Shown here: in pieces, positions 4,178 to 57,219 of the stretch
Layout: every line of letters begins with the position of its first letter
Numbering within the stretch: the first letter of the stretch is position 1
Virus record (IMG/VR): IMGVR_UViG_3300021962_000122
Coordinates: 1-58,552 of that record
Length of the DNA stretch: 58,552 nucleotides
DNA from: a virus
Lineage: Duplodnaviria > Caudoviricetes
Direction: 5' to 3' (one strand)
Translations under genes and position numbers: made by a program
The notes under the pieces: generated by a model
What the model was told of the DNA's origin: nothing
Database searches by the model: none
The model's input: the letters and a program-made list of their open reading frames with translations, nothing else

Positions 4178-4497
4178 CTCACACAACCAGTACCCCCACT
4201 GACTACGTCCAGTTTGACGAAGTCGACGACATTTGGATTCGGTCGTACACCATTGAGAAAGCGGGCTGCGGTTTATCCCAACACGTCCACGAACACCCCC
4301 ACGCCACCCTTGTTTCTCGGGGTACTATTCAAGCTTGGCAGGACGGGGAAAATATCGGACAATTCACTGCCCCTGCGGTGCTCACGATTCCGGCTGGCAA
4401 AAAACACATGTTCAAAGCGCTGACAGATGATGTGGTGCTTTGTTGTCTACATAATTTGCGTGGGACTGGCCTCGAGTCACCCAAATTCAAGGAGTAA
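4174..4497 (+). CDS. Cupin-fold protein
   Basis: HVHEHPH motif 1 and IPAGKKHMF motif 2. ATGA overlap with the upstream stop. Confidence 0.7.
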   Translation: MTHTTSTPTDYVQFDEVDDIWIRSYTIEKAGCGLSQHVHEHPHATLVSRGTIQAWQDGENIGQFTAPAVLTIPAGKKHMFKALTDDVVLCCLHNLRGTGLESPKFKE

Positions 4498-11900: not shown

Positions 11901-14900
11901 CTGCGTGAGCTTCAAGATGCCATAAAGCTGTACGAACGTACAGCACAAGAAGGTGAAGTTGCGGGAGAAGGCGCAAAAGGCCAAGGGCAGTTGTTCCCAG
12001 AGACACGCAAAGAACTTGGCTACATCCGTGCCACACCAGCCAACTTTGCCAAGTCCCCACAGATCAAACCTGTATGGGAGGCGTTGGAACAAGCACGCAA
12101 GCTCAAGGCAAAAACAGAAGCCAACCAGAAAGCTCGTTCTGTCAGAGACAAACAAGGCTTTGCGCAAGTTGAAGCAATAGAAGAACAACTTGAAGCCATT
12201 AAAAACCAAATGCAGTTTTTCTTGCTTAAGCCGGGAGACTTCAATATTGGTAAATACTCAAATGCAGACATTGCAAAAATGTTTGCGTCATATCCAGAAG
12301 CAGGCGTTACAAAAGAAGACAAGCTGCTGATGGATCGGTACTTGCAAGTGTCTAGACAAAGTATTGGTAAAACAAAGGATCAACAAGAAAAAGCCATGTC
12401 CGTGTTTACTGCGGAAGAAAAGGCACGCGTAAATGAGTTAATCAGCGACTTCAACACAAACAAAATCCCTGAGTACGAAAAGAATGTTAAGCAGGCGCTG
12501 CAAGCGCTCTCATTGGGACAGCGTCTTGAAAGCACGAATAACCGTTTAGTTGAGTTGATGCAAGACAACAATGCGGCTGTGCGTAAACAATCAGAAGCAG
12601 CCCGCAAAACTGTTGAACCACTACTGGAGAAGTTAAAGCTTATCAAAGCCAGTTTGCGTAATTCTGTTTTGTTAACTGACGGCCAACGTGCAATGCTTGA
12701 TTCTGAAATTGCGTTGCAGTCACAACGTGGCGCATACAAAGACGCCATGGCCAAGGCAATGGGCAAAGCCCGTCAACGCCTGAGCGATACGTTGGGTGAG
12801 TTGCTTGACCCTGAAATTGAACGCGCACGTCGTGCGTTGAAAGCAGCCAAGACACGTTTGGCCACAGTCGAGTCGCAGATTGAAACGGCAAAGAAAGAAA
12901 TGACTGAGGGTACTGGCCAAGCGCCAAACCTGATTAACAACTTGCAAAAAGTTCAAGGGCTTGTTGAGAACATTGAGAAGGCTGAGACCGAACTGGCTGA
13001 CTTGCAAGAAGCACGCTTTGGTGAAATTGAGAACGACGTTGTTGTTACCGAAGCCATGCTGGACAAAGACCTCAAGGCAGAACGTGAGTACTTAGAACTG
13101 CTTGAGCGACAACTGGCTGATATGCGCAAAGAACCGTTGACTGCTGTAGAGCTTGGTGGTCGTGGTGAACTGGGCAAGTTGAAGTATCCGTTCTCTGCAC
13201 AACGTTTGGAAACACAAGTAAAGGCACAACAAGCGGCTGTTGATGAAGCGCAAAAGCGTGCTGAAGAATTCCAAAAAGACGTGCAGGTTTGGTGGCCCAA
13301 AGTTACTGCCGCATTCAAGAAAGATGGAATCAGCATCAAAGACTTGCCCGGCGCAGTGTTTAAGAAAGGCCGCAAAGTTGCTGAGATTGTTACGCCAGAA
13401 CAAAAACGCCTTGATGATTTACGTGACAAAGGTGTGCAGGCTGCAAAAGAAGTTGACGAAGCCGCAGTGCGTCAGCGGGTCAAAGACAAACAGATTCAAT
13501 TGTTCGATGACGAAATCTTTGATGCGCGTGGTGAAGTGCAGGCGTTTATGGGGCCTGAGGACATGGAAAAGTTGGCCGACATCATGGCTGACCCCAAGAC
13601 TACCAACGTCAAACGTGTACAGGCTACGCTCAAGCTGGGCGCTATGCAAAAAGTTGCTTCGTTGGAAGCACAAAAACAAGCGTTCATTGAGGGCAAGCCT
13701 GCACCAAAACCAAAAACTGCTACTGTGCCGAGCACCGTTGCGTTGGCGGCGGCTAAACCGTTTCGTACTGGCTCAGGCGTAGCAAAAGCGTTTACTCCAG
13801 CAGAAATGGATGAGCTGGCTCGCGCTGATATACGTGATGCCAATGAGTTGGCCAAAAAGATTCTGGGTACAAAAGCGCCGCAGTTGCCAGAACCAAGCAA
13901 ACGCAAGCAAGGCAAGATGCCTGACCCCAACCTTGGTTTGTTTGATGACTTTGAGTTTTCTCGCGGCACACCAGTTAAAGGTCTGACCAAGGCTGAGCTT
14001 GAAGCCGAACTCACTGCTGGTATGGGCGAGCCAGTTACTGGGCGCAAGATAGAAGCGATGGTGTCCAATAAATTGGCGGTGTATGAAAGTGTTCAAGATT
14101 TCCTTGACAAGCAACCAAAATTAAAAGGTGTAGGTAAGTCCAAATACGAGGGTTTAATCCCAGCAGATGCCAAAGGCTTTGTGCAAGATGGTAAAGCGGT
14201 ACTGTTTGCCAACAACATTGGTAAAGGCCACGGACTGGGCGTACTGCTCCACGAAGTCGGCGTGCATTTGGGATTCCGCAACTTCTTTAACGAAGGCCAG
14301 TACAACGCGTTGGTTAAGACAGTCAAGAACTGGGCAAACAAAACTGAAGACTCATTGGAAGCGCGTGTTGGTAAAGCCGCCGTGCGCAGGGTTGAGGCTG
14401 CTAACACTCCACCACACCAGATTGACGATGAGTTGTTGGCATACGCTGTTGAAGAAGCCATGCAGATGGGTGTAGAGCCTGTTGGCGTTAAAGGCGGCAA
14501 CGCAGTCAAAAACTGGTTGAAGATGGTGGTCGATGGGTTCAAGAAAGCGCTTGAGAAGTTTGGCATCACTTCTAAGAACTTGACTGCTGGCGACTTGGTT
14601 AACTTTGCCTACGGCGCAGCACACCTTGAACTCAAGGGAACTTGGCACGGCACAGGTGTTAAATTTGATATGTTTGACCATACGTACATGAGCACCGGGT
14701 CAAACGCACAAACGTATGGTTGGGGAACATACCGTGCACAAAAGTACGGCACTGCGCAGTCATATCAAATTGATGCAGCTACAAAACAGTACGACGATTG
14801 GGTTGAACGCCCAGATATACAAGCATGGCTTGAATCACAAAAACCTAAATTTACAGGTAAGTTGCCATCTGGTATTCCTGAGCAATTTTTAGTCATGCCT

Positions 14901-17900
14901 TTGGTTGAAGCCAATAACGCGTACGGAGGTCAAAACCCAAATAAAATTTTTAAAGAAGCTGTTCAAGGCGAAATTGAAAACATTGAAGAGGAAAGAAAAC
15001 AGTTTTCTAATTTAAGTAGTGCGCCGCGTGCTGTACTTGCATCACAAGTATCGCCTGCTAGGGCCGCAATAGCAGCGGCACAGTCTTCTGCACGCGTAAC
15101 TGCCAGACCCATAACTGCAACACCAGTTAGAAACTATGGGTACGGGCCTGTAACTAAACCTTTAAGTTGGCGTGTGGAATGGATGCGGGGGTTGTCTGAC
15201 GCAGAAGTAGATAAAAAAATTGAAGAGCTTAAAAAGTTTGCAGAAACTGCTGACGAACATTTAGAAGCGGTCAATCAATTTCCTGTCTATAAAGGCAAAG
15301 AATACATTGAGTTGTACAAAGCGTACCCCACTGCCGCAAAGGTCATACACGCATTTGACAAAATGATGGACGCCAACCAAGGCACACCACCGTCTTGGAA
15401 AGAAGCTATTGCCAGTGTGAAAGCTGAAGCAAGCAAAAGCGTAAAAGAGTTGGGGGAGTTTTTTGAACGTTTTACATACGGAAAAGACCCGTACACAAAA
15501 CAGGTGTACGACGAAGCAAAAGAAACTTTACGTGACATTGATGCGTTTGACATAAACGACTTTAAGTACAACCCTCCGTCTGGGCCACCTGTACCTGAAC
15601 CAGCAGGTTACATGATGCGCACGTTGCACACACGTCCTGAGAACGAGTACATTCTTTATGACAGCCTTGCAGACAAACAACCAGAAGTTGTTAAAGATGC
15701 GTTTAAACGTATCTACGATAATTTAGATAAAAAACAACAAGCTGTTTTTAACCGTTCAATAGGCTTTGTACGACCAGATCGGCAAAACGGGCGCGATTTG
15801 TATAACGCTTTAAGTGCCGTGCTTGAACAAGGCGGTATGCCTAGTAAGTTGTGCGACATGTTTGCATCTGAAATGCTGCATGCCGAAGGTGTTGCTGGTA
15901 TTAAGTTTTTTGACGGCGTGTCAAGATACTCAGCAGCACAAGGTACTCCGGGCACATACAACTACGTTGACTTTGGTGACAAAGATGAAGGTGCGCAGAT
16001 CATTGCCACCGACATTAATCCGATCAATCAAACACAGCCAATGCAAAAAAGCGAGATACTGTTCTCGCGTTCAGAAGAGTTTACAAACCCTGAGCTTGCC
16101 AAACAAAGCAAGTTTATTGCCAAAATTGTGGCCAAGCAAAGAAGCTGGTCTGAAAAGATTAAAGCCAATACAACCGGGCTGGCTTTTGAAACACAGCTTG
16201 TAGATAGATTTGCAGGCTTCGAGCGTTTGGCCAAATACATGGATCCGGTCAAAGGCACGCAGATGATGTACTACCTGCGCATGTATGACCAACGCATGAA
16301 TTTTGTGTCTCAAGCAGTATCCAATGGCGCACCGGCAATCGTGGAGAAAACACGGCCTGACGGCAAGGTTGAGCGTTTGATTGAGAGCAAAGAGAGCGCC
16401 AACATCCACAATGTTGTTCAGATTTTGAAAGAAGCCCAGCCAATGGTTGGCAACGCAGAAGCTGTAAACCGCATATTCACTTTGTACATGGCCGCTATTC
16501 GTGCGGACAACAAAGGATTGTCTTCATTGAACTTTGGTGAAGACGTTACACAAGAACTGCTCAACGAAACCATGGCCGCCATAAAGGCCACACCCGGCTT
16601 GGAAAAAGTTTTGAAGCAAGCTAAAGATGAGTACAACGCCTACAACCGTAATTTGGTTGAGTTTGTTGTCAGCACTGGCGCTCTTTCCAAAGAAGTCGGC
16701 AAGCGTCTGCTGAGCGAAAACGATTACATACCGTTCTACCGTGAACGCAATGGCGTGGCTGAGCTTGTTATTGGCAACGAATCTCCTATCCGCATTGGTA
16801 GTATTGCTGAGCAGCCGTATCTGCATGAACTTGTTGGTGGCGACAGGCCCATCCTCGACTTCATGACCAGCTCGGTGCAGAACACCAATCTGTTGATGGA
16901 CATGGGTATGCGCAACTTGGCAACCAAGAACGCTGTGTTTGAGCTGGTTGATTTGAAAGCTGCCAAGTTTGTGAAAATGTCTGCTGGCCCAGACGTTGTT
17001 AAATTCAAAGACAACGGAGAAGATCGCTACGCAGTGCTGGCTACCGAAAAAGTAAAAATTGGCAACAAAGAGTTTGATACTGGCGTTCCTGCCGACATAT
17101 TGGTCAAAGGCATGGAGGGCATCCCAACACAGATGCCAGCAATGTTACGCGTCATGGCGTTCCCAGCACAGATACTGCGCAAAGCTATTACCCTCAGCCC
17201 TTTGTACACAGCCAAACAGTTGTTCCGTGACTCCGTGGCCGCGCCTATTCTTTCTGGCGCAGACTTCATGCCTGTCATTGGTGCGCTGAAAGAAATCAAC
17301 TCCACCACCAAGCAGACGCTTGAGCGCCGTGGTGTTACCGGAGGCCAGCAGTTTGTTGGTGGTGCCGAAGATTTGACCAAGATTCTGCGTGATGTGTCTG
17401 AGGGCAAACCGGGCTGGATGACTGCGCTTGGTAAGCTTGAAGCCATGAGTATGGAAGCAGATGCCGCAACACGTCGCGCCCAGTACAACAGCTACATTCA
17501 GCAGGGCCTGTCTGAGATGGAAGCAACACTGCTGTCGTTGGAGTCCATGAACTTCAACAAGCGCGGCGCGTCACCATCAATCCATGTGGCCAACTCCCTG
17601 ATACCTTTTTTCAACGCACAGATTCAAGGTCTGAACGTGTTGTACAAAGCGTCTATGGGCAAGATGCCATTCAACGATCAGCTGCGTATCCGTGAAAAAA
17701 TGATGCAGCGTGGTGCCATGATGGCAGTTGCAAGCCTTGCTTACGCCGCCTTGATGCAGGACGACGAAGCTTACAAAAACGCCACACCCGATCAAAAATA
17801 CGGCAATTGGTTTATTCGTGTGCCGGGTTTAGACGAACCCATCAAACTCCCTGTGCCGTTTGAAATCGGTTACATCTTCAAGGCGTTGCCTGAGGCAATA

Positions 17901-18656
17901 CTCAACAGCATGGTGAACGAGCACGGCGGTGAGGAAGCGGTCAAAGCTTTCAAACAAATCCTGCTTCAAACAGTTCCCGGCGGTTCGTCTTACGGCATCC
18001 CGCAGATCATGAAACCCGCCATCGAAGCAGGACTTGGCAAGTCGTTCTACACAGGTAGGGACATCTTGTCTGCGCGAGAGAAAGAGTTGTTGCCTGAAGA
18101 ACAGTTCCGCGCCAACACATCCGAGCTGGCTAAAGGTATTGGTAAAACACTGGGTATCTCTCCGATTGTGTTTGAGCAACTTGTCAGTGGTTACACCGGC
18201 ACAATGGGTTTGGCATTTATGCACGCACTTAGTGTTGGCGTGCCTACGGATGAGAGTCCTGATAAAGCAGTTAAACGTTTGTCAGAGTACCCAATCGTTG
18301 GTGGGGCGTTCCAACCAAACGACGCTGGTGGCATCATCAACAGCGTGTACGAGCGCATGAATGAAAATCTCAAGGTCAAGAACACCTTCAATAAGTTGGC
18401 ACAAGAAGGCAGAATGTCTGAAGCTATGGCGTTGCTTCAACGTCGTGGTAATGAGTTCATGCAAGCAGACTTGGCGAACAGTTTCAAAGCCAACATGAAC
18501 AAACTTGCTCAGGCTGAACGGGCAATTGCAGCATCCAACATGTCCCCCGAAGCCAAGCGCGAACAGCTGGACAAAATCAGGAAGATAAAGATCGCCGTTG
18601 CTCAAACGGTGAGAGAGGTTTCCGATAAAACCATACGCCTAACAAGCCCCTTCTAA
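8994..18656 (+). CDS. Giant polyvalent virion protein: coiled coils, zincin-like peptidase, ART-like domain, LPD38-like C-terminus
   Basis: 3220-aa ORF containing LLHEVGVH...DDELLAY, WHGT...TG...AQTYGWGTY...GIKFFD...YNYVDF, and C-terminal IPFFNAQIQG...LPVPFEIG. Confidence 0.75.
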   Translation: MPQAVPLPDGSYVAIREGETPQQAYARAQQMYPEAFRVAAPAAPKETTFGGQTKEFFKGLVPGAIGLVEQAGTGISALLPEEQEKATQKYIKETAAAAKAPFAAAPGYEDTVGRKFGEAAGSIAPFLATGPFGLAGRVAGYGLGVGAGAGTQVEKSAAEGATEGQQTAATALGAVVGASEMFAPARILKRLGEPVLEGATSYVKRALMAGGEEAAQEAAAQAAQNIITKGIYKPEQEIIEQVGESAAYGGAVGALAQGLLDLAIGRRAPTTPLTDEVKQAREEAAVQAEQEKIRLNSVDYAQEVFQKTQELEAQRTALKQQLIPIKKGVSPETDYAHNRDINRQIEAINKELKPLADEYVRVKPILKRAEEEAKIAKLTPYEYALGLKPEEVGQKPAEPELYEQQIAKPPEAPKAEDVAAKYAAQSIQLANDQQLSSEKKPNDAVADYVSYLMRDPMLADQIVNKRMQLPGLPTGVRNSAVLDALKLQLAPGFKQEMETRKAAFGVPKAEEVKTPEVQAFTSYMDDLKSKRNDVGDDMFFKYMVDPKLEKIAEGKPPVIAVNPELKPFANIKRAERSREKINGLLDNIDQANADRDVALRSGNRDAADAAFERGQKALEQINAFVEPTPTGEVTKGRFPAAATAPESSIYAKEILRVRNEQNTALNTIEDKIDRLRRGETLGKEEMAATSPAILAQQAEEARGKYISAVLEEAAIHRRVAGKPELTYDEAIKAASRIHDVVGEWLDRAKAVPKKPELEEVIVQPAQMRANKLVRGAVTKRVLKTRDLATTPLNEIARLSDKEVKHFKAQIAKVVDSLSELPSTATREVPVLKQQFAATEAQKVAEAKGETAKTLGGELRRLREYVGNMIDKALTRNPPEEIQNSLERVKEIIDDGKASKELLDAAQNQAARILRGEDLGKQVYTKREAVPGKRVVENVPGREAETRFGERGRTYKSVGYEAELAPEGSALRELQDAIKLYERTAQEGEVAGEGAKGQGQLFPETRKELGYIRATPANFAKSPQIKPVWEALEQARKLKAKTEANQKARSVRDKQGFAQVEAIEEQLEAIKNQMQFFLLKPGDFNIGKYSNADIAKMFASYPEAGVTKEDKLLMDRYLQVSRQSIGKTKDQQEKAMSVFTAEEKARVNELISDFNTNKIPEYEKNVKQALQALSLGQRLESTNNRLVELMQDNNAAVRKQSEAARKTVEPLLEKLKLIKASLRNSVLLTDGQRAMLDSEIALQSQRGAYKDAMAKAMGKARQRLSDTLGELLDPEIERARRALKAAKTRLATVESQIETAKKEMTEGTGQAPNLINNLQKVQGLVENIEKAETELADLQEARFGEIENDVVVTEAMLDKDLKAEREYLELLERQLADMRKEPLTAVELGGRGELGKLKYPFSAQRLETQVKAQQAAVDEAQKRAEEFQKDVQVWWPKVTAAFKKDGISIKDLPGAVFKKGRKVAEIVTPEQKRLDDLRDKGVQAAKEVDEAAVRQRVKDKQIQLFDDEIFDARGEVQAFMGPEDMEKLADIMADPKTTNVKRVQATLKLGAMQKVASLEAQKQAFIEGKPAPKPKTATVPSTVALAAAKPFRTGSGVAKAFTPAEMDELARADIRDANELAKKILGTKAPQLPEPSKRKQGKMPDPNLGLFDDFEFSRGTPVKGLTKAELEAELTAGMGEPVTGRKIEAMVSNKLAVYESVQDFLDKQPKLKGVGKSKYEGLIPADAKGFVQDGKAVLFANNIGKGHGLGVLLHEVGVHLGFRNFFNEGQYNALVKTVKNWANKTEDSLEARVGKAAVRRVEAANTPPHQIDDELLAYAVEEAMQMGVEPVGVKGGNAVKNWLKMVVDGFKKALEKFGITSKNLTAGDLVNFAYGAAHLELKGTWHGTGVKFDMFDHTYMSTGSNAQTYGWGTYRAQKYGTAQSYQIDAATKQYDDWVERPDIQAWLESQKPKFTGKLPSGIPEQFLVMPLVEANNAYGGQNPNKIFKEAVQGEIENIEEERKQFSNLSSAPRAVLASQVSPARAAIAAAQSSARVTARPITATPVRNYGYGPVTKPLSWRVEWMRGLSDAEVDKKIEELKKFAETADEHLEAVNQFPVYKGKEYIELYKAYPTAAKVIHAFDKMMDANQGTPPSWKEAIASVKAEASKSVKELGEFFERFTYGKDPYTKQVYDEAKETLRDIDAFDINDFKYNPPSGPPVPEPAGYMMRTLHTRPENEYILYDSLADKQPEVVKDAFKRIYDNLDKKQQAVFNRSIGFVRPDRQNGRDLYNALSAVLEQGGMPSKLCDMFASEMLHAEGVAGIKFFDGVSRYSAAQGTPGTYNYVDFGDKDEGAQIIATDINPINQTQPMQKSEILFSRSEEFTNPELAKQSKFIAKIVAKQRSWSEKIKANTTGLAFETQLVDRFAGFERLAKYMDPVKGTQMMYYLRMYDQRMNFVSQAVSNGAPAIVEKTRPDGKVERLIESKESANIHNVVQILKEAQPMVGNAEAVNRIFTLYMAAIRADNKGLSSLNFGEDVTQELLNETMAAIKATPGLEKVLKQAKDEYNAYNRNLVEFVVSTGALSKEVGKRLLSENDYIPFYRERNGVAELVIGNESPIRIGSIAEQPYLHELVGGDRPILDFMTSSVQNTNLLMDMGMRNLATKNAVFELVDLKAAKFVKMSAGPDVVKFKDNGEDRYAVLATEKVKIGNKEFDTGVPADILVKGMEGIPTQMPAMLRVMAFPAQILRKAITLSPLYTAKQLFRDSVAAPILSGADFMPVIGALKEINSTTKQTLERRGVTGGQQFVGGAEDLTKILRDVSEGKPGWMTALGKLEAMSMEADAATRRAQYNSYIQQGLSEMEATLLSLESMNFNKRGASPSIHVANSLIPFFNAQIQGLNVLYKASMGKMPFNDQLRIREKMMQRGAMMAVASLAYAALMQDDEAYKNATPDQKYGNWFIRVPGLDEPIKLPVPFEIGYIFKALPEAILNSMVNEHGGEEAVKAFKQILLQTVPGGSSYGIPQIMKPAIEAGLGKSFYTGRDILSAREKELLPEEQFRANTSELAKGIGKTLGISPIVFEQLVSGYTGTMGLAFMHALSVGVPTDESPDKAVKRLSEYPIVGGAFQPNDAGGIINSVYERMNENLKVKNTFNKLAQEGRMSEAMALLQRRGNEFMQADLANSFKANMNKLAQAERAIAASNMSPEAKREQLDKIRKIKIAVAQTVREVSDKTIRLTSPF

Positions 18657-37138: not shown

Positions 37139-37775
37139 TTTCTATCTCCCCTTTGTTGTTGAATCTCCAACCGTTGATGTATATGAGTTCTTTAAAGTAT
37201 TCTTCACTTGTATAGCCCTCATACTCTTGCCTCAAAGCGTCATAGATTTCATCGGCGTACTCTCGTGCGTGACGAATCGCAAACTCTTCAAGCTCACACA
37301 CCAAGCGTTCGGTGTCGATTGCTTGGTCTAACTCATGCACCAGTGCACCTTGCAAGATGCCGTGCTCAAGTACATCGCCGTTGTCCTCACCCAAAGACGC
37401 AAAGCACTTGATGCCGTCGTAACTCATCGTCCCTGAGTGGTTGTAGTAGAACGACCTGCGTGACACGCCCATCGTTTTGTCTACCCACTGGTTACGAATA
37501 AGCTCGAGCAGTACTGTGTACCTTGCAAACTCAGGATGGTCTGGTGTAGCGAAGTGCTCAATGAACCAAGGCAGATGTACATACCCCGTCCACGAAGCAC
37601 CATCGCCTTGAGAAGAGAACCCGCTGAATTGAATCTCATCAATCATGAAACCCTTAGCGCTTCCATCTTCTTTGAAGCGTGCATACACACACTCGTACCA
37701 ATCATCAGGCGGCTCGCCATATAGTTGTATGGCGTTAGCTTTTGCTTGTGGTGATAAGTCTTCAAACTCCATCAA
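37128..37775 (-). CDS. Hypothetical early protein with FSGFSSQGDGA motif
   Basis: The motif recalls a family seen on phages and mobile elements. Function unknown. Confidence 0.6.
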   Translation of the reverse strand: MMEFEDLSPQAKANAIQLYGEPPDDWYECVYARFKEDGSAKGFMIDEIQFSGFSSQGDGASWTGYVHLPWFIEHFATPDHPEFARYTVLLELIRNQWVDKTMGVSRRSFYYNHSGTMSYDGIKCFASLGEDNGDVLEHGILQGALVHELDQAIDTERLVCELEEFAIRHAREYADEIYDALRQEYEGYTSEEYFKELIYINGWRFNNKGEIENGV

Positions 37776-38316
37776 GTTTCTCCAAAAGTTTCTTCAATGT
37801 CTCCACCATCTTCTTCTCAAGCACCTCCTCCACAATTTCTTGTACCCTGTCTACATCAGGGTAGTCGTTGTCACTCAGGTACATCTCTATCTTGTCGTCA
37901 ATGTCATACGCATCAAACTTGTCATCGAAGTCGTAGTCAGTGATGGCATCATGTATCTGGTCGCTGATGTCTGTGTCACGAACCTCTCTGCGTACTTGCT
38001 CTGTGATGATGTCGTCAACTATTTCTCTAACGCCATCTATCGTCAGATGTTCCTCTGTGTCGTTGTGTTCATCTATTGATTCCTCTGTGATGTCTTTGAT
38101 TGCCTCTCTGAATGAATCGTCGATGTACTTCACGGCACTATGAGCTTCAAGCACGGCGCTGACTTTCTCGTTGACTTGCGTGTTGATGTGCTCATTGATT
38201 GCGTGGAGTAGTGTGTGGATAAGCGTCTGCTTGGGTTGTGGTTGAGGCGTTGCCTCGGGTGTGGTTTGTGTTGCTTGTTCCACGGCGTTTACTTCTGTGT
38301 TTGTGATTTGATTCAT
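37762..38316 (-). CDS. Highly acidic early protein
   Basis: AAGGAAAG RBS before ATG 38316. Asp/Glu-dense C-terminal two thirds. Confidence 0.7.
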   Translation of the reverse strand: MNQITNTEVNAVEQATQTTPEATPQPQPKQTLIHTLLHAINEHINTQVNEKVSAVLEAHSAVKYIDDSFREAIKDITEESIDEHNDTEEHLTIDGVREIVDDIITEQVRREVRDTDISDQIHDAITDYDFDDKFDAYDIDDKIEMYLSDNDYPDVDRVQEIVEEVLEKKMVETLKKLLEKLDGV

Positions 38317-38434
38317 GATTGCTTTCCTTTGGTTTACAAATGTTGGTGAAGCGCACCAACGACGCAACTGGCAGACACCATGTCTGCGAGTTTTTCTGTA
38401 ATTTCTACGATGAGTGTTCCCGATGTGCCTTGGC

Positions 38435-38554
38435 TTACAAGTAGCACATGACATGCACACGCCACACGAACAGGTCGAGGGCGAGCACGATGACTGCGGT
38501 GATATACGCAAGCACAAAGGCTATGCGTATGGGGGTGAATGTTTGTAGTGTCAT
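38435..38554 (-). CDS. Small membrane peptide
   Basis: 39 aa with one hydrophobic helix. GAGG RBS and ATGA coupling. Confidence 0.45.
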   Translation of the reverse strand: MTLQTFTPIRIAFVLAYITAVIVLALDLFVWRVHVMCYL

Positions 38555-38745
38555 GAGTATGTGTTCCTCTTTGCTTGTTCTAGGTATAGCTGTGTCAGGC
38601 GTTGTTGAACTTCTGCCCACCCGTTCACTTTCTCCCAGTACAGCACTTGCAGTGCCATGCCGACAGACCAACGCACATCATCTTCATCCTCCATGTGTTT
38701 GACTGCTTCCTCAATTAACTCATCAATATCAATTTCAATCTTCAT
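38551..38745 (-). CDS. Hypothetical acidic protein
   Basis: GGAG RBS, coupled ORF. Confidence 0.55.
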   Translation of the reverse strand: MKIEIDIDELIEEAVKHMEDEDDVRWSVGMALQVLYWEKVNGWAEVQQRLTQLYLEQAKRNTYS

Positions 38746-38959
38746 TTACTTCTCCCTCAGTTGTTCTCATAAAGTCACGCAGTTCTGCAAAGTTGTAGAC
38801 GAAGCGTCCATGCTCATCACGGAACCGCCACTCGTCACACAGCGCACACCCTGCCTCGTATGTGCGGCATCGTTTGGCAAAGCACACACGCAGGAAAGCA
38901 AAGCCTGCCTCCGTTACATACTTTGTCTTCGCCCTTCGGCGTATCTGTCTGACTTTCAT
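38735..38959 (-). CDS. Hypothetical Cys-containing protein
   Basis: GGAGG RBS and C...C...CxxC pattern. Confidence 0.5.
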   Translation of the reverse strand: MKVRQIRRRAKTKYVTEAGFAFLRVCFAKRCRTYEAGCALCDEWRFRDEHGRFVYNFAELRDFMRTTEGEVNED

Positions 38960-39133
38960 TTAAACCTCCTCATTCTTTTTAAACCAATACTCCCGCGCCC
39001 ACATCGTTTGGAGTAACGCAATGCCTGCGTAGACAGGTTCAATCAGGTTGTCCCTCTGCATCCTGTCCACCGCAAACTTGGTACGCCGCGCCATGTACTC
39101 ATGGAACGGCAACGCAAACAAGTCATCATTCAT
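38960..39133 (-). CDS. Hypothetical protein
   Basis: GGAG RBS before ATG 39133. Confidence 0.5.
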   Translation of the reverse strand: MNDDLFALPFHEYMARRTKFAVDRMQRDNLIEPVYAGIALLQTMWAREYWFKKNEEV

Positions 39134-39184
39134 TCTTCTCTCCCAAAGTTGTTTATACAAACTCGCAGACACCATGTCTGCCAG

Positions 39185-39823
39185 TTACTTACGCCGAACC
39201 AGTAGCTCGGGCACTTTCATGCGTTCTTTCTCCTCCTTCCTGATGCTCAACCACCTGTCACGCAAGGACTCGAGTCCGAACTCGGACACCAAGTCCCACC
39301 AGTTTCGTTTCTCATTTTTATATTTGTGTGGGTCTGCCTCGAAGTCGAGCATGATGCGCCCCCTCTCCCGCTTGAGTATGTCCTCGTACTTCTCGAGCAA
39401 CCCCTCATGTGCTTGGTTCCCTACCTCTTGTGCGTAGCGTCTCTGTGCCCGCACCTTGTGTATCTCGTAGCCCATCGGTGCGAGGGCGTCTTTCAGTTGT
39501 TTGCGCCACTGCTCTACCCACGCTTCGTATCGGGCGCGGCTTTGTACCAACAACGCCATGCGGTGGCGTTCCTCCAGTATGAGCTTTGCCTTGACCTCAC
39601 TGATGTCACCACTCACCACCATGTTGTGCAGTTGTCGTGGCGTTTGCTTGCGTGGGGGCTTGCGTTTGGGTTGGCAGTCTTTGCAGTTCTTTGAGATGAT
39701 GGTCATGAGCACCTCACCTTTCATGCCCCTTGCGTGCATTTGTGCACGGGATAAACGCTTTTTGAATTGGGCGAGAGGCTTGGTTGTCCCGCACTTTGCA
39801 CATTTTTTGTAATCGTTTAGCAT
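39185..39823 (-). CDS. Basic Zn-finger protein
   Basis: KKCAKCG...CKDC motif with Lys/Arg-rich composition. Confidence 0.6.
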   Translation of the reverse strand: MLNDYKKCAKCGTTKPLAQFKKRLSRAQMHARGMKGEVLMTIISKNCKDCQPKRKPPRKQTPRQLHNMVVSGDISEVKAKLILEERHRMALLVQSRARYEAWVEQWRKQLKDALAPMGYEIHKVRAQRRYAQEVGNQAHEGLLEKYEDILKRERGRIMLDFEADPHKYKNEKRNWWDLVSEFGLESLRDRWLSIRKEEKERMKVPELLVRRK

Positions 39824-39850
39824 GAGAAAGCCCTTATGTTTCAGTCGACA

Positions 39851-40216
39851 ATACCCACTTGTTGCTCGAGCATACCCACCATTTTTCGTGATGGGACAAA
39901 CTAGTGGGTGCGGTGTTTTACCAGTAAACATCGAGTATTTTAACCCTCCATCCCTCGATACCTATCTGATTTCTGAAGAACAGAAACTTTTTTTCTTTTC
40001 TTTTTTAATTTGTGTCCACTTGTACCCATATATATATATATTTATCTTTTTATCTCTTATATATATGTAGGTATTGTGGGCTGGACACTGGCTGAACGCC
40101 CATGAACGCTGGAAAAAAAGCGCACCCACTTGTGTGGCAAGGTGTGAAAAATGGTGGGTATGATACCCACTACTGTATAAAAACACAGTAGAAGGATTAG
40201 TTACTGTATGTGGGTA
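39851..40216. other. Putative replication origin: AT-rich core flanked by (T/C)ACCCAC repeats
   Basis: T-tracts and (TA)n at about 39987-40066, with about eight ACCCAC/GTGGGT-type copies in both orientations. Confidence 0.45.
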
Positions 40217-40272
40217 CAGTTTATTGTGGTTTTTTGAACTGGCAGACACGATGTCTGCCAGTTTGCCTGTTG

Positions 40273-40458
40273 TCAGAGGAGTTTGAGTTGTCTGCATGAC
40301 GCTTTGACTTCGTTCCATTCCTCTTTCCATCGTGCCTGTCGCAGGGCTTCGGCACGCCTTGGGTCTTTGCGCCTGAGTTCCTCGTCTGCTTTGATTTGGG
40401 CTTTGAGGGCGCTGAGCTTGGCTTGCACGCCCGAGGGGATTTGTTTTCTGATTTGCAT
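40273..40458 (-). CDS. Small basic early protein
   Basis: AAGGAAAG RBS. Confidence 0.55.
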   Translation of the reverse strand: MQIRKQIPSGVQAKLSALKAQIKADEELRRKDPRRAEALRQARWKEEWNEVKASCRQLKLL

Positions 40459-40468
40459 GGCTTTCCTT

Positions 40469-40576
40469 TCAGACGAATAAGTACCAGATGGGTGAGAACA
40501 AACGCTTGCAAGCGATGGCTTGGCGGTACTCAGCTTGCATGATTTGGCGGATTTCTTTGAGTTGAGATTTGGTCAT
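40469..40576 (-). CDS. 35-aa early peptide (not in the ORF track)
   Basis: MTKSQLKEIRQIMQAEYRQAIACKRLFSPIWYLFV with AAGGA RBS. Confidence 0.45.
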   Translation of the reverse strand: MTKSQLKEIRQIMQAEYRQAIACKRLFSPIWYLFV

Positions 40577-40579
40577 GAT

Positions 40580-40756
40580 TTATTCCTTGGTTTGATTGGC
40601 TTTGCGGGCGAAGTACTCGGTGATGAATGAGGGTGCTTGGCACTCTTGGGCAAGGGCGCACATCGCCCAGTATTCATCGGGGTTGATGGTTTCTTTGGTC
40701 GTGTGTTCCATGCGGATGAGCACCGCAAAGATGAGGTCGAGTTGGTTTGGGTTCAT
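40580..40756 (-). CDS. 58-aa early peptide (not in the ORF track)
   Basis: MNPNQLDLIFAVLIRMEH... with AGGAAAG RBS. Confidence 0.55.
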   Translation of the reverse strand: MNPNQLDLIFAVLIRMEHTTKETINPDEYWAMCALAQECQAPSFITEYFARKANQTKE

Positions 40757-40852
40757 GATGCTTTCCTAAAGTTGTTTGACAGAAAAAAGAATAGCGGTGG
40801 GACTCGACATCCACACCGCTTTGAAAAAACTGGCAGACAAGATGTCTGCGAG

Positions 40853-41248
40853 TTACTGAACAGAAGCCAAGAAACGGCGCTTTTGTGCCGTAGTCAGCTT
40901 CTCGTATGACTCAACGAGTTTGGTAACAGCGTCCTTCTTCTTGCTTGTCTGTGGCTTCTTGCTGTCCTTTTGCACATCCACAAAGATATTGTTGAGAATG
41001 CGACTGACTCGTCTTTCCTCAGCTGTGCCATGCCCGAATGCCCAGCCACGCTGACCCTTGTAAGGCTTGCGTGTGGTGGTGGACAACTCAGACACATAGA
41101 ACACGACATAAGGGCGTGCTTCTGCTCGTGTGCCTACACCATTGGCAAGCAAGGTGTCGAGCAAAGTGGCAGACTCGATGTCTGCGAGTTTCAGGGTAGG
41201 AACGATTGCCCGATATGTGTTCGGGTTGATTGCTGTTGCGAGTTTCAT
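40853..41248 (-). CDS. First gene of the leftward early operon, hypothetical
   Basis: GGAG RBS before ATG 41248. Confidence 0.65.
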   Translation of the reverse strand: MKLATAINPNTYRAIVPTLKLADIESATLLDTLLANGVGTRAEARPYVVFYVSELSTTTRKPYKGQRGWAFGHGTAEERRVSRILNNIFVDVQKDSKKPQTSKKKDAVTKLVESYEKLTTAQKRRFLASVQ

Positions 41249-41260
41249 AGATAGCTCTCC

Positions 41261-41288
41261 AAAAGAAAAACCCCGCAACTGGCGGGGC
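41261..41288 (-). terminator. Intrinsic terminator-like hairpin in the early leader
   Basis: Minus strand reads CCCCGC-cagtt-GCGGGG-TTTTTCTTTT. Confidence 0.65.
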
Positions 41289-41323
41289 GACAGACCGACT
41301 GAGTTCCCCCAATCGATAAATCT

Positions 41324-41332
41324 ATTATAGCA
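41324..41332 (-). promoter_or_regulatory. Extended -10 sigma70 promoter (TGcTATAAT) for the early operon
   Basis: Perfect TGnTATAAT at the strand switch, pointing into the leftward genes. Confidence 0.65.
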
Positions 41333-41520
41333 CAAACGAGTTTCACAATACCCTTGACATGAAAAATCGTAATACCTTAGACCCCACCATACCCCCACCA
41401 CCCCATATGTCAGCGAGGCAGGCGTTGTCCCGTGAACACTACTCCCCTCCGATTCCCAGCACCCCAGTAATACTTAACCCCTACACCCCCTAAATTTTTC
41501 TAAAAATTCCAAACAACCTG

Positions 41521-41536
41521 TGTCAAACGTTGGACA
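41521..41536. promoter_or_regulatory. 16-bp palindrome TGTCAAACGTTGGACA (putative operator)
   Basis: Third member of the TGTCAAAC/GTTTGACA family, in the divergent control region. Confidence 0.5.
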
Positions 41537-41692
41537 ACCGTATCCGTAAAAAAACCCCCCGGCATCGCTGACGAGGGGTTGAACAGTTGGGTCACAACTG
41601 AGGAGAGAAGCAAGTGCTTGCGCAACTGCTGGAAATAAGTGTACACTGCAAACCAACGCGCAACAACCCTGTGTAAAAACACAGCTATCAAA

Positions 41693-42301
41693 ATGTTGGA
41701 GCATTTGGTGCAGTTCTCCCCAGACGACGCCGGTCTGGACGATTTCGTAGGTATTAAAGCTGTTTCGTCAGCGGATTTACTGTCGGCGCAAATAGCCACG
41801 GCAGAGTTGTTGGATGAGCTGGGTGTCACGCCAGACAACCAGATCAGTTACGAAGCCCAGACACAGGCGGCTCGCGACGCGTTCAAAGTGGTGATTGCCG
41901 ACAAAGACTCGGACGAGCAAAAGACAAAGCTGCTCCAGTTAAAGACCCCCGCCGCTGTGCGCCACATCACGGGCATGCTGACAGCGTATGACTGGGAATT
42001 TGTACAGATGGCCAAAGAACTCCGTGGGTACACGGTGGCCAAGTTGTTTGAGGAAACTCAGTCCCCCAACGCCAACATCCGCTTGAAGGCTCTTGGTCTA
42101 CTTGGCAAAGTTACGGAAGTCGGGCTGTTCACCGACAAGGTTGAGATCAAGAAAACCGACCTGACCGACGAAGAGATCGACAAGAAGCTCAAAGACAAGC
42201 TTGCTGCCTTCATGGGCGTGCAAGACGTGGAGCCGATTGAAGACATAGAAATAAACGAACCGCCAGATGAAACTCAGCAACCTGACGCTCAGCCCGACTG
42301 A
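41693..42301 (+). CDS. terS: Putative terminase small subunit
   Basis: Directly upstream of TerL, with RLKALGLLGK...GLFTDKVEI motif. Confidence 0.65.
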   Translation: MLEHLVQFSPDDAGLDDFVGIKAVSSADLLSAQIATAELLDELGVTPDNQISYEAQTQAARDAFKVVIADKDSDEQKTKLLQLKTPAAVRHITGMLTAYDWEFVQMAKELRGYTVAKLFEETQSPNANIRLKALGLLGKVTEVGLFTDKVEIKKTDLTDEEIDKKLKDKLAAFMGVQDVEPIEDIEINEPPDETQQPDAQPD

Positions 42302-43805
42302 AATTCAGGCCATTCAAAAAGCCCTCCCCACCATGTCCCTAGCAGAGAAGGTGGAGCTGATGGACATGCTTGAGGAACGTGAAAAACGTTACAAACTGGT
42401 GGCTGGGCGCACGGACATGATTAAGTTTGCCCAGCACGTCTACCCCGGATTCAAGGTCGGGCCTCACCACAGGAAGCTGGCCAAGATATTTCAAGACGTG
42501 ATTGATGGCAAAAAGAAACGCGTCATCATCAACATCGCCCCACGTATGGGTAAATCTGAATTCTCGTCGTACCTGTTCCCAGCGTACTTCCTTGGCAACT
42601 TCCCCGACAAGAAGATCATCATGGGCACGCACACCGCCAGCTTGTCTGAGGACTTCGGTCGCCGAGTCAGAAACTTAATCAACGATGAGAGCTACCATGA
42701 ACTATTCCCCCAAACCCTTGTGGCAGACGACCAGAAGGCTGCTGGAAAGTGGAGCACTGCTGCCGGTGGTCAGTATTACGCTGCTGGTGTTGGCGGTGCT
42801 CTCGCTGGTCGCGGAGCTGACCTTTTTGTTATTGACGATCCGCATTCGGAGCAAGATGTAAAGGCTAACTCACGCCTTGCGTTCGACACCGCTTGGTCTT
42901 GGTTTCAGACTGGCCCGTTGCAGCGTCTGATGCCGGGCGGGGGGATCATCGTGGTCATGACACGCTGGGGGCCGTTGGACTTGACCGGCAGGCTCATCCA
43001 GTACCAAGTCAATAACCCGGACTCACCGCAGTGGGAGATCGTGGAGCTACCGGCGATCCTTAATGAAAATACTGAAAATGAAAAAAGCCTTTGGCCAGAG
43101 CAGTGGCCGCTGGAGGCCTTACGCAGCGCCAAGTCCTCGATGGATCCACGGTATTGGAACGCGCAGTACATGCAGCAGCCCACCAGTGACACGGCTGCCA
43201 TCATCAGCAGAAAGCACTGGCGCATCTGGGAGAGCGACACACCGCCTGAGTGCGAGTACATCATCCAGAGCTGGGACACGGCGCACGAGACAAAGAGCAC
43301 ATCTGACTACAGCGCGTGCACAACGTGGGGCGTGTTCTACAACGAGGAAGAAAACAGCAAGGCGCAGGTCATACTGCTGGACGCCTTCAAGGACAGGATG
43401 GCGTTCCCTGAGTTAAAGCAGGTGGCCTTCAAACAGTGGCGGGAGTGGGAGCCGGATGCGTTCATCGTGGAGAAGAAAGCTGCTGGTGGCCCGCTGATCC
43501 AAGAGCTGCGCAACATGGGCATCCCTGTGCAAGAATTTACACCCAGCCGTGGAAACGATAAGATGGTGCGTGTCAACGCCGTGGCCGACATGTTTGCATC
43601 TGGCTTGGTATGGGCACCGGACACACGTTGGGCACGCGAAGTCATTGAGGAAGTCGCAGCTTTCCCTGTGGGGGAGAACGATGACTACGTGGACACGACC
43701 ACCCAAGCACTGCTGCGCGTCAGACAAGGCGGCTTCATCCGTATCGACACAGATGAGCCAGATGAACCCCGATTTTTCAAACGCCGAGTAGCGGCGTACT
43801 ACTGA
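42267..43805 (+). CDS. terL: Terminase large subunit
   Basis: APRMGKS Walker A, VIDDP Walker B, MTRW, nuclease SWDTA and DDYVD. Confidence 0.95.
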   Translation: MKLSNLTLSPTEIQAIQKALPTMSLAEKVELMDMLEEREKRYKLVAGRTDMIKFAQHVYPGFKVGPHHRKLAKIFQDVIDGKKKRVIINIAPRMGKSEFSSYLFPAYFLGNFPDKKIIMGTHTASLSEDFGRRVRNLINDESYHELFPQTLVADDQKAAGKWSTAAGGQYYAAGVGGALAGRGADLFVIDDPHSEQDVKANSRLAFDTAWSWFQTGPLQRLMPGGGIIVVMTRWGPLDLTGRLIQYQVNNPDSPQWEIVELPAILNENTENEKSLWPEQWPLEALRSAKSSMDPRYWNAQYMQQPTSDTAAIISRKHWRIWESDTPPECEYIIQSWDTAHETKSTSDYSACTTWGVFYNEEENSKAQVILLDAFKDRMAFPELKQVAFKQWREWEPDAFIVEKKAAGGPLIQELRNMGIPVQEFTPSRGNDKMVRVNAVADMFASGLVWAPDTRWAREVIEEVAAFPVGENDDYVDTTTQALLRVRQGGFIRIDTDEPDEPRFFKRRVAAYY

Positions 43806-55833: not shown

Positions 55834-57219
55834 GTGTTTGGATTTCTAGCATTCTCACAAGCCCCGTTTTCGTCGCTTAGTGGTAATACATTTGCTGCCT
55901 CAGTATCTGAATCAGCCACAGCGACGGATAGCATATCTTCGCTTTTAACTTTTAATTCGTCTGTATCCGAGACCGCTACCGCCACTGATTCAATCTCGTC
56001 TTTACTGACATTTTTGGCGGCAGTTTCTGAGACATCGACGGCTACAGACTCTATTTCGGCTGCGGCGACATTTCTCGCAAATATTTCTGAGTCTGCCACA
56101 GCTACAGATACGCTCTCAGCCTTACAGACTTTTGCAACAGATATATCCGAAGCAGTAACGGCAACGGACGCCATATCTGCGATCCAAGTATTTGTATCGG
56201 CAGTATCCGAGACAGCCACCGCATCTGATGCAGTTTCATCACTTCTGACGTATTTGTCAGCGGTGTCGGAGTCAGCAACAACAACGGACTCTATATCTTC
56301 CTCAGTTGTTTTCCAAAGTGTGGTGTCTGAGGCGGCAACTGCAACCGACGCAATATCATCGACACAAGATTTTGTTACGGCTGTGTCAGAAACAATCACG
56401 GCAACAGACTCTTTGTCTGCTGCGGCGAGCTTCATCTCCAACGTGGCTGAGACATCAACGGCAACGGATTCTGTTTCCGGTAAACAAGATTTTGGTGTCA
56501 CCGTGTCTGAGAGCGCAACTGCCACGGACAGCATAGCTTCTTCATACATTATTGGTTCCGCAGTATCTGAGACATCGGCGGCAACGGATTCAATCTCAGC
56601 GAATGCGGTGTTCCCAGTAACGATTAACGAAACATCGACAGTGACGGATTCAGGTTCTGCGGCTCAAACTTTTGCTACAAACGTAGCAGAGACAGCGACA
56701 GTGACGGATTCTGATTCGTCTACGCCTATTTACGCCCCGCAGATTGCAGAATCAGTAACAGCAACAGATGATGTGTCTAGCTCATTTGCATTCACTGGCA
56801 ATGTGGATGAAACGGCTACGGCAACAGATGACATTGTTGGCGGTTTATTGTTCTTGAACAGTGTCACCGAATCTTCCGTGGCTACGGACGCAATGGAAGC
56901 GTTTGCCACTTTTGCGGTGCTTGTTGAAGAATTTGGGTCAGTTATCGACGGGGCGGTGGTAACGCAGGTCTTCCTGTGCGCCATCCAAGAAACCATCACG
57001 GCATCGGACTCGTTCTTTGCCCGATTCTTGTGGGAACTCATCAACGACAGTCAGACCGCAAACTGGGCAAACATAGACTCCTCAGAAAGCACAACTTGGG
57101 CGACAATCAACGCAGCCCAAAGTGCGGGCTGGGCAAATCTAAACACCGCAGAGTCCGCTGACTGGGCAGAAATAAATGACAGCAACCCCAATACTTGGAC
57201 AAAGATTGGGACAACCTGA
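55834..57219 (+). CDS. Repeat-rich virion filament protein (about 20 repeats of 19 aa)
   Basis: Repeating FxxxVSE(T/S)ATATDxxS unit and C-terminal 11-aa Trp repeats. Confidence 0.7.
   Translation: MFGFLAFSQAPFSSLSGNTFAASVSESATATDSISSLLTFNSSVSETATATDSISSLLTFLAAVSETSTATDSISAAATFLANISESATATDTLSALQTFATDISEAVTATDAISAIQVFVSAVSETATASDAVSSLLTYLSAVSESATTTDSISSSVVFQSVVSEAATATDAISSTQDFVTAVSETITATDSLSAAASFISNVAETSTATDSVSGKQDFGVTVSESATATDSIASSYIIGSAVSETSAATDSISANAVFPVTINETSTVTDSGSAAQTFATNVAETATVTDSDSSTPIYAPQIAESVTATDDVSSSFAFTGNVDETATATDDIVGGLLFLNSVTESSVATDAMEAFATFAVLVEEFGSVIDGAVVTQVFLCAIQETITASDSFFARFLWELINDSQTANWANIDSSESTTWATINAAQSAGWANLNTAESADWAEINDSNPNTWTKIGTT

Follow-up and report, generated by a model that had tools for sequence, protein, structure and literature searches.

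The 58,552-bp IMG/VR virus record IMGVR_UViG_3300021962_000122 (completeness 92% by CheckV estimate), analysed here at its full length and called the window, is the podophage-like genome of an uncultured aquatic phage, with a rightward structural arm and a leftward early/replication arm. In this study, we examined five 27-bp palindromes that are confined to the first 3 kb of the leftward arm, beside the divergent region next to terS, together with the first gene of that arm, which we call g1. Comparison with related phages points to the small protein encoded by g1 as the probable reader of these palindromes. The coding strand of all genes near the palindromes is the minus strand, and the features on which the argument turns are as follows.

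38366-38392: palindrome 1 (type GCAGACA, 1 mismatch), intergenic, between a 39-aa open reading frame (ORF) ending at 38435 and a gene starting at 38316
39160-39186: palindrome 2 (1 mismatch), overlapping the TAA stop of a 248-aa gene at 39185-39931
40237-40263: palindrome 3 (0 mismatches), the sole perfect 12+3+12 copy, 9 nt past the ORF 40273-40458 stop codon, after a group of small genes and bordering an AT-rich gap
40828-40854: palindrome 4 (1 mismatch), overlapping the TAA stop of g1
41164-41190: palindrome 5, degenerate with 3 mismatches, spanning codons 20-28 of g1 (KLADIESAT)
40853-41248, minus strand: g1, 131 aa, first gene of the leftward early/replication arm

The repeated word reads AACT-S-GCAGACA-NNN-TGTCTGC-S-AGTT. 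Scanning with AACTGGCAGACANNNTGTCTGCCAGTT for 27-mers with at most three mismatches recovered exactly these five matches in the window and no sixth copy anywhere in the record, and a match occurred in none of the 100 dinucleotide-preserving shuffles that served as the control. The scan agrees with an earlier, model-made reading of the letters (the sequence-only reading), which had reported five palindromes here and none elsewhere, two of them on TAA stops (40828 and 39160) and one inside a coding region (41164, within 40853-41248). The left arm in part supplies the stop codon of the upstream gene (TAA-CT), and between the copies at 40237 and 39160 lie the AT-rich gap (39932-40236) and the Cys-rich 248-aa gene.

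Conservation of the palindromes and definition of the unit

A motif scan of relatives found the same sites, matching the exact core pattern, at 70 loci on 35 IMG/VR contigs, in clusters of 1-5 copies that keep the same order and have recognisable flanks. Conservation is concentrated in the arms: over their 24 positions, mean pairwise identity among distinct copies was 90-98%, whereas the 40-nt flanks ranged over 44-84% and the centre over 33-100%, in an ungapped comparison that may somewhat underestimate flank identity. The product of the neighbouring 248-aa gene is only 71-81% identical in 24 of the 25 relative loci. Among 64 distinct copies of the GCAGACA type (type 1), positions 6-11 and 17-21 were invariant without exception, position 22 was kept in 61, and the centre was free; the NNA centre of the window copies is not general among relatives. 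Pair 5/23 (the S of the word above) was Watson-Crick in 21 of these 64 copies and in 14 of the 38 in a second set. The proposal of conserved arms around a varying 3-nt centre thus holds for the core arms and for the free centre, and does not extend to position 5/23, which is not kept complementary.

Ten further core types, like type 1, consist of fixed 7-bp inverted repeats around a free 3-bp centre. Since the outer arms are often non-complementary in these other lineages, the constant unit is a 17-bp dyad of the form 7+3+7, and the 12-bp arms (the core plus AACT-S on each side) are a feature of the type-1 lineage. The spacer was 3 in every scanned copy, in scans that sought that spacing only. 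With two 7-bp half-sites and 3 free bases between them, the half-site centres lie 10 bp apart.

The sequence-only reading had allowed that the repeat might prove to be a repetitive extragenic palindromic (REP)-like element of the host. In 596 Gb of bacterial genomes (one per species, 185,579 species), the motif gave 8 single matches scattered over unrelated taxa, close to the ~2 expected by chance (our own arithmetic), and on this ground we rule out a REP-like or other host repeat. The pattern of conservation indicates that the palindromes are under sequence selection and are the phage's own feature. A literature search, in which subscription journals lay outside the coverage, found no description of the present system, and searches with the four 12-mer arms returned only unrelated papers among the matches listed.

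Switching of the cores together with g1

Loci of 4-10 kb each were fetched with the smaller alignment A4, the broad alignment A3 being too diverse. A relative of g1 is encoded in 73 of the 74 loci examined, and in 69 of those 73 a 7+3+7 palindrome is repeated at least twice. Eleven core types occur (GCAGACA, AGTATCA, GCGGACA, GCTGACA, GTGGACA, CCCGACA, TGGGACA, CGGGACA, GGGGGAA, ACTGACA and GGGAGCA), most of which fit NNNGACA. The layout recurs, with one site in or before g1, one at its stop and two to four further downstream. Measured from the g1 stop, the first site lies at -317 to -347 (inside g1) or at -436 to -525 (upstream), and at -122 in the CCCGACA type; later sites follow at +3 to +21, about +300 to +900, +1270 to +1950 and +2200 to +4100. 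Copies of the own-type core lie inside g1 in relatives with GCAGACA, GCGGACA and GTGGACA cores.

The sites are conserved, their cores are specific to the lineage, and the N-terminal domain of g1 switches together with all of the cores. On a tree of g1, the 12 labels need 12 changes (the minimum being 11), against a mean of 22.8 in shuffles, none of 200 being as low; kin share labels, however, so that the tree by itself does not distinguish function from co-inheritance, which counts against leaning on it. For the same reason, a comparison of genomic backbones provides the stronger evidence. We compared the type-1 loci L095, L097/L105 and L104 with the type-2 (AGTATCA) loci L096, L106-L112, L122-L124, L131 and L134. 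Upstream, the two types are 85-95% identical in nucleotide sequence over 1.2-1.5 kb, all of terS included, and downstream most pairs are 83-91% identical over 1-2 kb, the 248-aa gene included. Within g1, only the last 60-98 nt align, and every core in the homologous flanks is switched. L096, for example, is ~90% identical to L095 on both sides, and has AGTATCA in place of GCAGACA at the same positions; the body of g1 is the only stretch that cannot be aligned. The two g1 proteins share a C-terminal helix (KLTAAEKRRFLASV), and their N-terminal domains are roughly 40% identical. The same pattern of g1/core switching was found between L144 and L147 (GCTGACA versus GCGGACA).

Within ~2.5 kb on either side, g1 is the only gene that switches along with the palindrome type. 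The 248-aa protein shows no co-variation with type, its gene lying in an 85-91% identical downstream block common to types 1 and 2. Because TerS and the 248-aa protein are common to the backbone while the cores switch, both are excluded, for the neighbourhood examined, as readers of the variable core. Genomes are also largely faithful to one type, with 173 own-type sites versus 8 of another type in 51 distinct loci.

As a separate observation, the type-2 g1 of L106 and L123 carries an in-gene near-copy of GCTGACA (1 mismatch) at offset -323 from the g1 end. This near-copy is built on conserved Ala-Asp codons, the own-type fifth site of these genomes lying upstream of the gene instead, and it may be a trace of an earlier specificity.

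The g1 protein

By sequence, g1 has no match in Pfam, PHROG or PDB, and Pfam gave none for any of 64 family members. An ESM Atlas search returned only viral hypothetical clusters, and tblastn with two queries (E <= 0.01) found no g1 relatives in 50,697 GenBank phage records. Profile searches of metagenomes yielded a virus-only family with 80 close relatives and 112 representative clusters at 50% identity. Going by these searches, g1 is a member of an undescribed family without a name.

An AlphaFold2 model of g1, built from a 64-sequence alignment, reached a predicted local distance difference test (pLDDT) value of 88. It comprises helices at residues 9-24, 30-35 and 41-54 and a beta hairpin at 63-70, the tip of which is the family motif GQRG; a further helix (76-93) is followed by a Lys/Pro-rich linker and, at the C terminus, a helical hairpin. 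The protein is predicted to form a homodimer, with a score of 0.55 versus 0.00 for the best control, agreement of three runs in at least 91% of contacts and a partner pLDDT of at least 77. The mark used was reached by 20 of 30 proteins solved as one-chain pairs and by 1 of 23 solved as single chains, counts that hold only roughly here since g1 was tested with its own alignment. A dimeric protein as binder had been suggested from the letters, with four candidates named; the suggestion is plausible for one of the four, the 40853 protein, which is g1, given that it co-switches with the cores and is a predicted homodimer. A likeness to the phage 21 Q protein (E about 2, template modelling score 0.3), seen with the first g1 model only, was discarded and is not evidence.

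Transcription signals around g1

Three further elements on the minus strand lie close to g1.

41324-41332, minus strand: extended -10 element TGcTATAAT, a possible early promoter, read by eye and not called by the scan
41270-41288, minus strand: G+C-rich hairpin followed by TTTTTCTTTT, in terminator form, directly before the g1 ribosome site
40793-40820, minus strand: second terminator-like hairpin with a T-run, directly after palindrome 4 (-17.8 kcal/mol, z -3.5)

A consensus scan of 37500-42500 called 2 promoter-like sites, where shuffles gave 4.1 on average, and neither of the two adjoins a palindrome. At the place matching the extended -10 element, the type-2 locus L123 has TGgTATACT. The hairpin at 41270-41288 and its T-run end ~10 nt before the g1 ribosome site and ~30-50 nt downstream of the likely promoter. 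A terminator-form hairpin at this place is conserved in type-2 phages (for example, L123 3925-3950), and it could serve as a leader attenuator for the whole early arm. The 40793-40820 sequence is likewise present in relatives.

Palindrome 4 is followed by TTTTTTC on the minus strand and thus has terminator form. A terminator scan of this strand called palindrome 4, palindrome 2 weakly, and none of palindromes 1, 3 and 5; the T-run of palindrome 1 is on the plus strand. Folded as sense-strand RNA, palindrome 1 gave -13.3 kcal/mol with a G-G mismatch at 5/23, palindrome 2 gave -15.0 kcal/mol, and palindrome 3 gave -19.2 kcal/mol (z -5.3).

g1 as the candidate reader of the palindromes

Because related phages change g1 and all of the words together, docking of g1 on the palindromes is the most likely explanation of the array, and g1 is probably their reader. 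A symmetric dimer, half-sites one helical turn apart, a fixed sequence around a free centre and types linked to the protein together make a protein/site pair the best reading. That the palindromes are cognate recognition sites of a g1 dimer on DNA, through which the early operon is controlled, is a proposal on which we are evenly balanced; that g1 is a DNA operator protein with a transcriptional effect, we judge to fall a little short of an even call. We infer from the comparisons that g1 binds the sites, that DNA and not RNA is the ligand, and that transcription is affected. A g1 dimer would bind double-stranded DNA at the five sites and, once bound, would control the passage of host RNA polymerase along the early operon. 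We propose control of elongation because no site coincides with a called promoter, and because the array brackets g1 and occupies junctions between genes. The outcome would be autoregulation of g1 and early shut-off, either by a roadblock or by modulated termination at the terminators flanking g1.

Several observations weigh against this interpretation. The scan called no sigma-70-type promoter next to a palindrome, which sets the palindromes apart from classical promoter operators. As sense-strand RNA, every copy folds into a hairpin (-9 to -19 kcal/mol), the copy after the g1 stop is followed by a T-run in 10 of the 11 types, and both arms always change together between types, as a hairpin would require. 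The folding and the T-runs mean that a role at the RNA level is real or at least possible, and the argument of the sequence-only reading, that conservation without covariation favours DNA recognition, stands within a lineage, whereas the choice between DNA and RNA is less settled than that reading assumed, on account of the arms that change together between lineages and of the T-runs. When two g1 models were compared with known folds, Foldseek gave nothing at E <= 0.001, the best VIA-align Z was 5.2 and no DNA-binding fold was recovered, an empty outcome that neither demonstrates a new fold nor excludes a known one. It is possible that a second co-varying protein is encoded elsewhere in the genome, beyond the few kilobases that each locus spans. 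Finally, two genomes are mixed: L095 has a type-1 g1 and one type-2 site (at 5168), and L110 has a type-2 g1 and one type-1 site (at 4458). Both look like recent recombinants whose sites are not yet matched to the protein, and their existence means that a mismatched site can survive for some time at least.

Comparative genomics here points to one small gene as the reader of a dyad-repeat array, through natural swap experiments in which near-identical backbones carry different protein/site types, with 11 specificities in total. A long-standing descriptive puzzle thereby becomes directly testable. If the proposal is true, it gives a name to a widespread virus-only protein family, yields orthogonal protein/site pairs and bears on the timing of early genes in lytic aquatic phages that lack an RNA polymerase of their own. 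Arrays of this kind are known already; the novelty lies in a candidate reader, in the undescribed family to which it belongs and in 11 naturally occurring specificities on backbones that are shared in part.

Alternative explanations

g1 might read the palindromes not as DNA but as hairpins in the nascent early RNA, bringing about antitermination, stronger termination or directed processing; the promoter-proximal site would then load g1, and the terminators around g1 would be its targets. We regard this as a possible, though unlikely, account. In its support, g1 is the first gene and is flanked by hairpins of terminator form (41288-41270, palindrome 4 with its T-run, and 40820-40793); type 2 also conserves the terminator that directly precedes the g1 ribosome site, and the T-run after g1 is kept in all types but one. 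Every site also lies in the transcribed direction, and protein and hairpin switch on a conserved backbone, as they do in lambdoid N/nut modules. However, the loop of such a hairpin would be the free centre, whereas readers of the N/boxB type read the loop, and recognition of A-form RNA through the sequence of a stem is uncommon. In most copies pair 5/23 is mismatched, and a symmetric homodimer with half-sites 10 bp apart fits B-DNA. G-U is not favoured among the non-Watson-Crick pairs of the sense strand (~23 G-U versus 28 A-C in our own tally), and as a test of RNA against DNA neither these pairs nor the centre triplet gave a usable signal, the copies not being independent.

We also entertain, as possible though unlikely, that g1 is the founder of a fold class of its own, one of small proteins that read nucleic acids sequence-specifically as dimers, and forms a self-contained switch for the early operon. 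Such a protein would have been re-targeted at least 11 times, mostly via the outer three bases of the NNNGACA half-site. It would bracket its own gene with sites, some of them in terminator form, and would set how far host polymerase reaches into the early operon of a lytic phage, and it is this bracketing, together with the terminator-form copies, that would make the switch self-contained. Such a switch would be distinct from both the classical operator and the N/nut system, acting as a terminator or antiterminator gated by a protein.

A DNA-binding g1 could have a role outside transcription, such as marking or firing an origin in the AT-rich gap, parS-like partition or condensation, or stepwise DNA entry modelled on the injection-stop region of phage T5. 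Two of the sites bracket the AT-rich gap, and the confinement of all five to the first 3 kb beside the divergent region next to terS would suit such a role. We nevertheless consider it improbable, as the contigs of relatives are circularly permuted relative to each other, neither ParA/ParB nor an initiator was found adjoining the sites, and the feature that stays constant across types is the bracketing of g1, not that of the gap.

We give little credence to the view that the palindromes lack a specific reader and are ordinary RNA hairpins (terminators or 3'-end stabilisers) kept alike by duplication and gene conversion. The folds are stable, palindrome 4 has terminator form, and mixed-type genomes would be harmless on such a view. 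Yet core positions 6-11 and 17-21 are invariant in type-1 copies across phages whose proteins are 70-80% identical, and a constraint on structure alone would permit compensated drift, of which none is seen inside a type. The types are only 11, discrete, and track g1 clades; neither pair 5/23 nor the outer arms are kept paired, and a clear sense-strand T-run follows only 1 of the 5 window copies.

The sequence-only reading had also offered the palindromes as recombination sites that shuffle early gene cassettes, a role that would resemble that of the PeSL elements discussed below and that we find very unlikely. The element that bears on it is a repeat in front of small genes.

38741-38766, 39129-39154 and 40752-40777, minus strand: ribosome-site repeat (family D14), AAACAACTTTRGGAGA...ATG, preceding three small early genes

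Gene content does differ between the palindromes, and the spacing ranges from 395 to 812 nt between palindromes 4 and 3 and from 710 to 1382 nt between 2 and 1; the spacings 5-to-4 and 3-to-2 are constant among relatives. The block boundaries, however, which were drawn from relatives and from contigs of other runs (24 public runs in all), are not at the palindromes: they fall at 38554, 38959, 39126, 40590 and 40753 and beside g1, at gene starts, at gene ends and at the repeated ribosome-site sequence, and none is inside a palindrome. Since 2 of the 3 copies of the ribosome-site repeat (39129 and 40752) lie at block boundaries (39126 and 40753), this repeat is a better candidate than the palindromes for the junction of cassette exchange. 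No promoter was called beside the palindromes and no recombinase was found among the scanned ORFs, and a free 3-nt centre means that no crossover core is shared. An apparent joint from 38392 to 40752 in an RNA-library contig was set aside, having only 21 letters on one side.

Phage N4 has hairpin promoters with a short stem and a 3-nt loop, and a comparable role as promoters for a virion RNA polymerase would fit the 3-nt centre, the clustering at the start of the early region and a giant 3220-aa protein of the virion module, but it is extremely unlikely. The only matches of that protein are LPD38 in Pfam and two unnamed PHROGs, with none among PDB sequences. Searches of the scanned ORFs with Pfam and PHROGs, which could miss a diverged polymerase, recovered no RNA polymerase family, and the sites, instead of preceding genes, are located at gene ends and within a gene.

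Comparison with known repeat arrays

The closest descriptive parallel in form is found in Cluster O mycobacteriophages. In Corndog, a 17-bp repeat (5'-TGTTCGGNNNCCGAACA) occurs in 34 copies genome-wide and is described as 'of unknown function', and its authors predict a dimeric DNA-binding protein with a role other than transcription initiation (PMC4351075). Both arrays consist of 7-bp inverted repeats with invariant arms and 3 free bp between them, and many of the Cluster O repeats are intergenic or near gene 5' ends in phages that are not obviously temperate. The present array, too, has several copies per genome, mostly at gene junctions or 5' ends, with a word of its own in each lineage. 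The two differ in that Corndog has 34 spread copies and the window has 5 in the first 3 kb of one arm, and in that no reader is named in the Cluster O report, whereas here one gene co-varies with the core.

For the stoperators of Cluster A phages, site and protein specificities diverge together between related phages. Stoperators of the L5, Bxb1 and TipsytheTRex type are reported to be repressor sites that stop elongation (PMC9283540; PMC6550527). The likeness is that a single phage-specific site recurs in many copies within operons, away from promoters. The stoperator is, however, reported as an asymmetric site bound by a monomeric two-domain immunity repressor (PMC9283540), in contrast to a dyad and a predicted homodimer here. 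Stoperators are spread genome-wide in temperate phages, and no lysogeny genes were seen in the window. By analogy, g1 would act much as a Cluster A stoperator system does, though it would stand outside that family.

In the Streptomyces phage phiC31, the conserved inverted repeats (CIRs) are 17-bp operators of the c repressor that lie in the early region, partly at gene ends. They resemble the present sites as 17-bp inverted repeats that recur through an early region and, in phiC31, are bound by a phage protein; they differ in that phiC31 is temperate and that its repressor is a known helix-turn-helix protein encoded elsewhere. The N/nut system of lambda offers a different parallel, with a first early gene followed by terminators, promoter-proximal and later sites of one sequence, and a protein and site that switch together between related phages. 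There, however, the boxB hairpin is read via its loop, whereas here the centre is free and the stem sequence fixed, and g1 has no detectable likeness to lambda N.

The PeSL elements of T4-type phages combine a strong sigma-70 promoter with a terminator stem-loop, and recombination between them is reported to shuffle genes (PMC2839356; PMC4122927). The likeness is one of repeated stem-loop units between small, variable early genes. The present array differs: no promoter was called next to a palindrome, and breakpoints fall next to the palindromes instead of within them.

Genome setting and neighbouring features

The rightward arm starts with terS and terL (42267-43805) and also encodes portal, capsid and SU10-adaptor-like proteins and the 3220-aa LPD38 protein. 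The leftward arm runs from 41248 to 18764 and encodes PolA, an SNF2 helicase, a DUF927 primase-helicase and a PD-(D/E)XK nuclease. With the named relatives DSL-LC04, 023Pt_psg01 and HTVC027P, the window has only TerL in common (44-52% identity), in a different layout, and blastn of the region against GenBank phages gave no match. Two features adjoin palindromes 2 and 3.

39185-39931, minus strand: 248-aa Cys-rich protein, with weak PHROG endonuclease/HNH matches (E 1e-4)
39932-40236: non-coding, AT-rich gap that separates palindrome 3 from the 248-aa gene

The AT-rich gap contains two CTGT-N8-ACAG boxes, at 40173 and 40204 (spans 40171-40190 and 40202-40221), and a third lies in non-coding DNA at 41667-41686; the whole window has 7, versus 1.6 expected. 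They resemble what we take to be the LexA (SOS) box consensus of beta/gammaproteobacteria. TACTGTGTTTATATACAGTA, or a variant differing by 1-2 nt, stands ~30 nt past palindrome 3 in almost every relative of type 1 or type 2 whose sequence covers the site, at least one box is present in 26 of the 51 distinct loci, and in some relatives a second box is made from the right arm of palindrome 3 (CACTGTCTGCCAGTACAGTA). These LexA-like boxes give a hint as to the host clade, and also that the second early block may be under SOS control. Also within the gap, at 40154-40170 on the minus strand, is a 7+3+7 palindrome with a different word, GTGGGTA TCA TACCCAC, followed by CATTTTTCAC and surrounded by several AAGTGGG/AAGTGGA words (inverted repeat I12); this palindrome and these words are possibly sites for an initiator or another protein.

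In a search of Rfam 15, no covariance model matched at the palindromes at E <= 1, and the sole match was a sub-threshold one to Betaproteobacteria_toxic_sRNA at 41547-41608 on the minus strand (22 bits versus a gathering threshold of 50, E 0.34). It falls on a terminator-form hairpin (CCCC...GGGGGG followed by T7) upstream of the early promoters and is probably due to chance.

At the end of the structural arm, the 3220-aa ORF (8994-18656, plus strand), in which the LPD38 match is C-terminal, looks like a polyvalent virion protein that is probably injected. Two other stretches, both inside structural genes, carry in-frame tandem repeats: one has eleven 9-nt units (AAGCTGCAC-like) at 4592-4717, and the other, in the gene of a 461-aa protein (55834-57219), contains ~16 repeats with a 60-nt period at 55892-56837.

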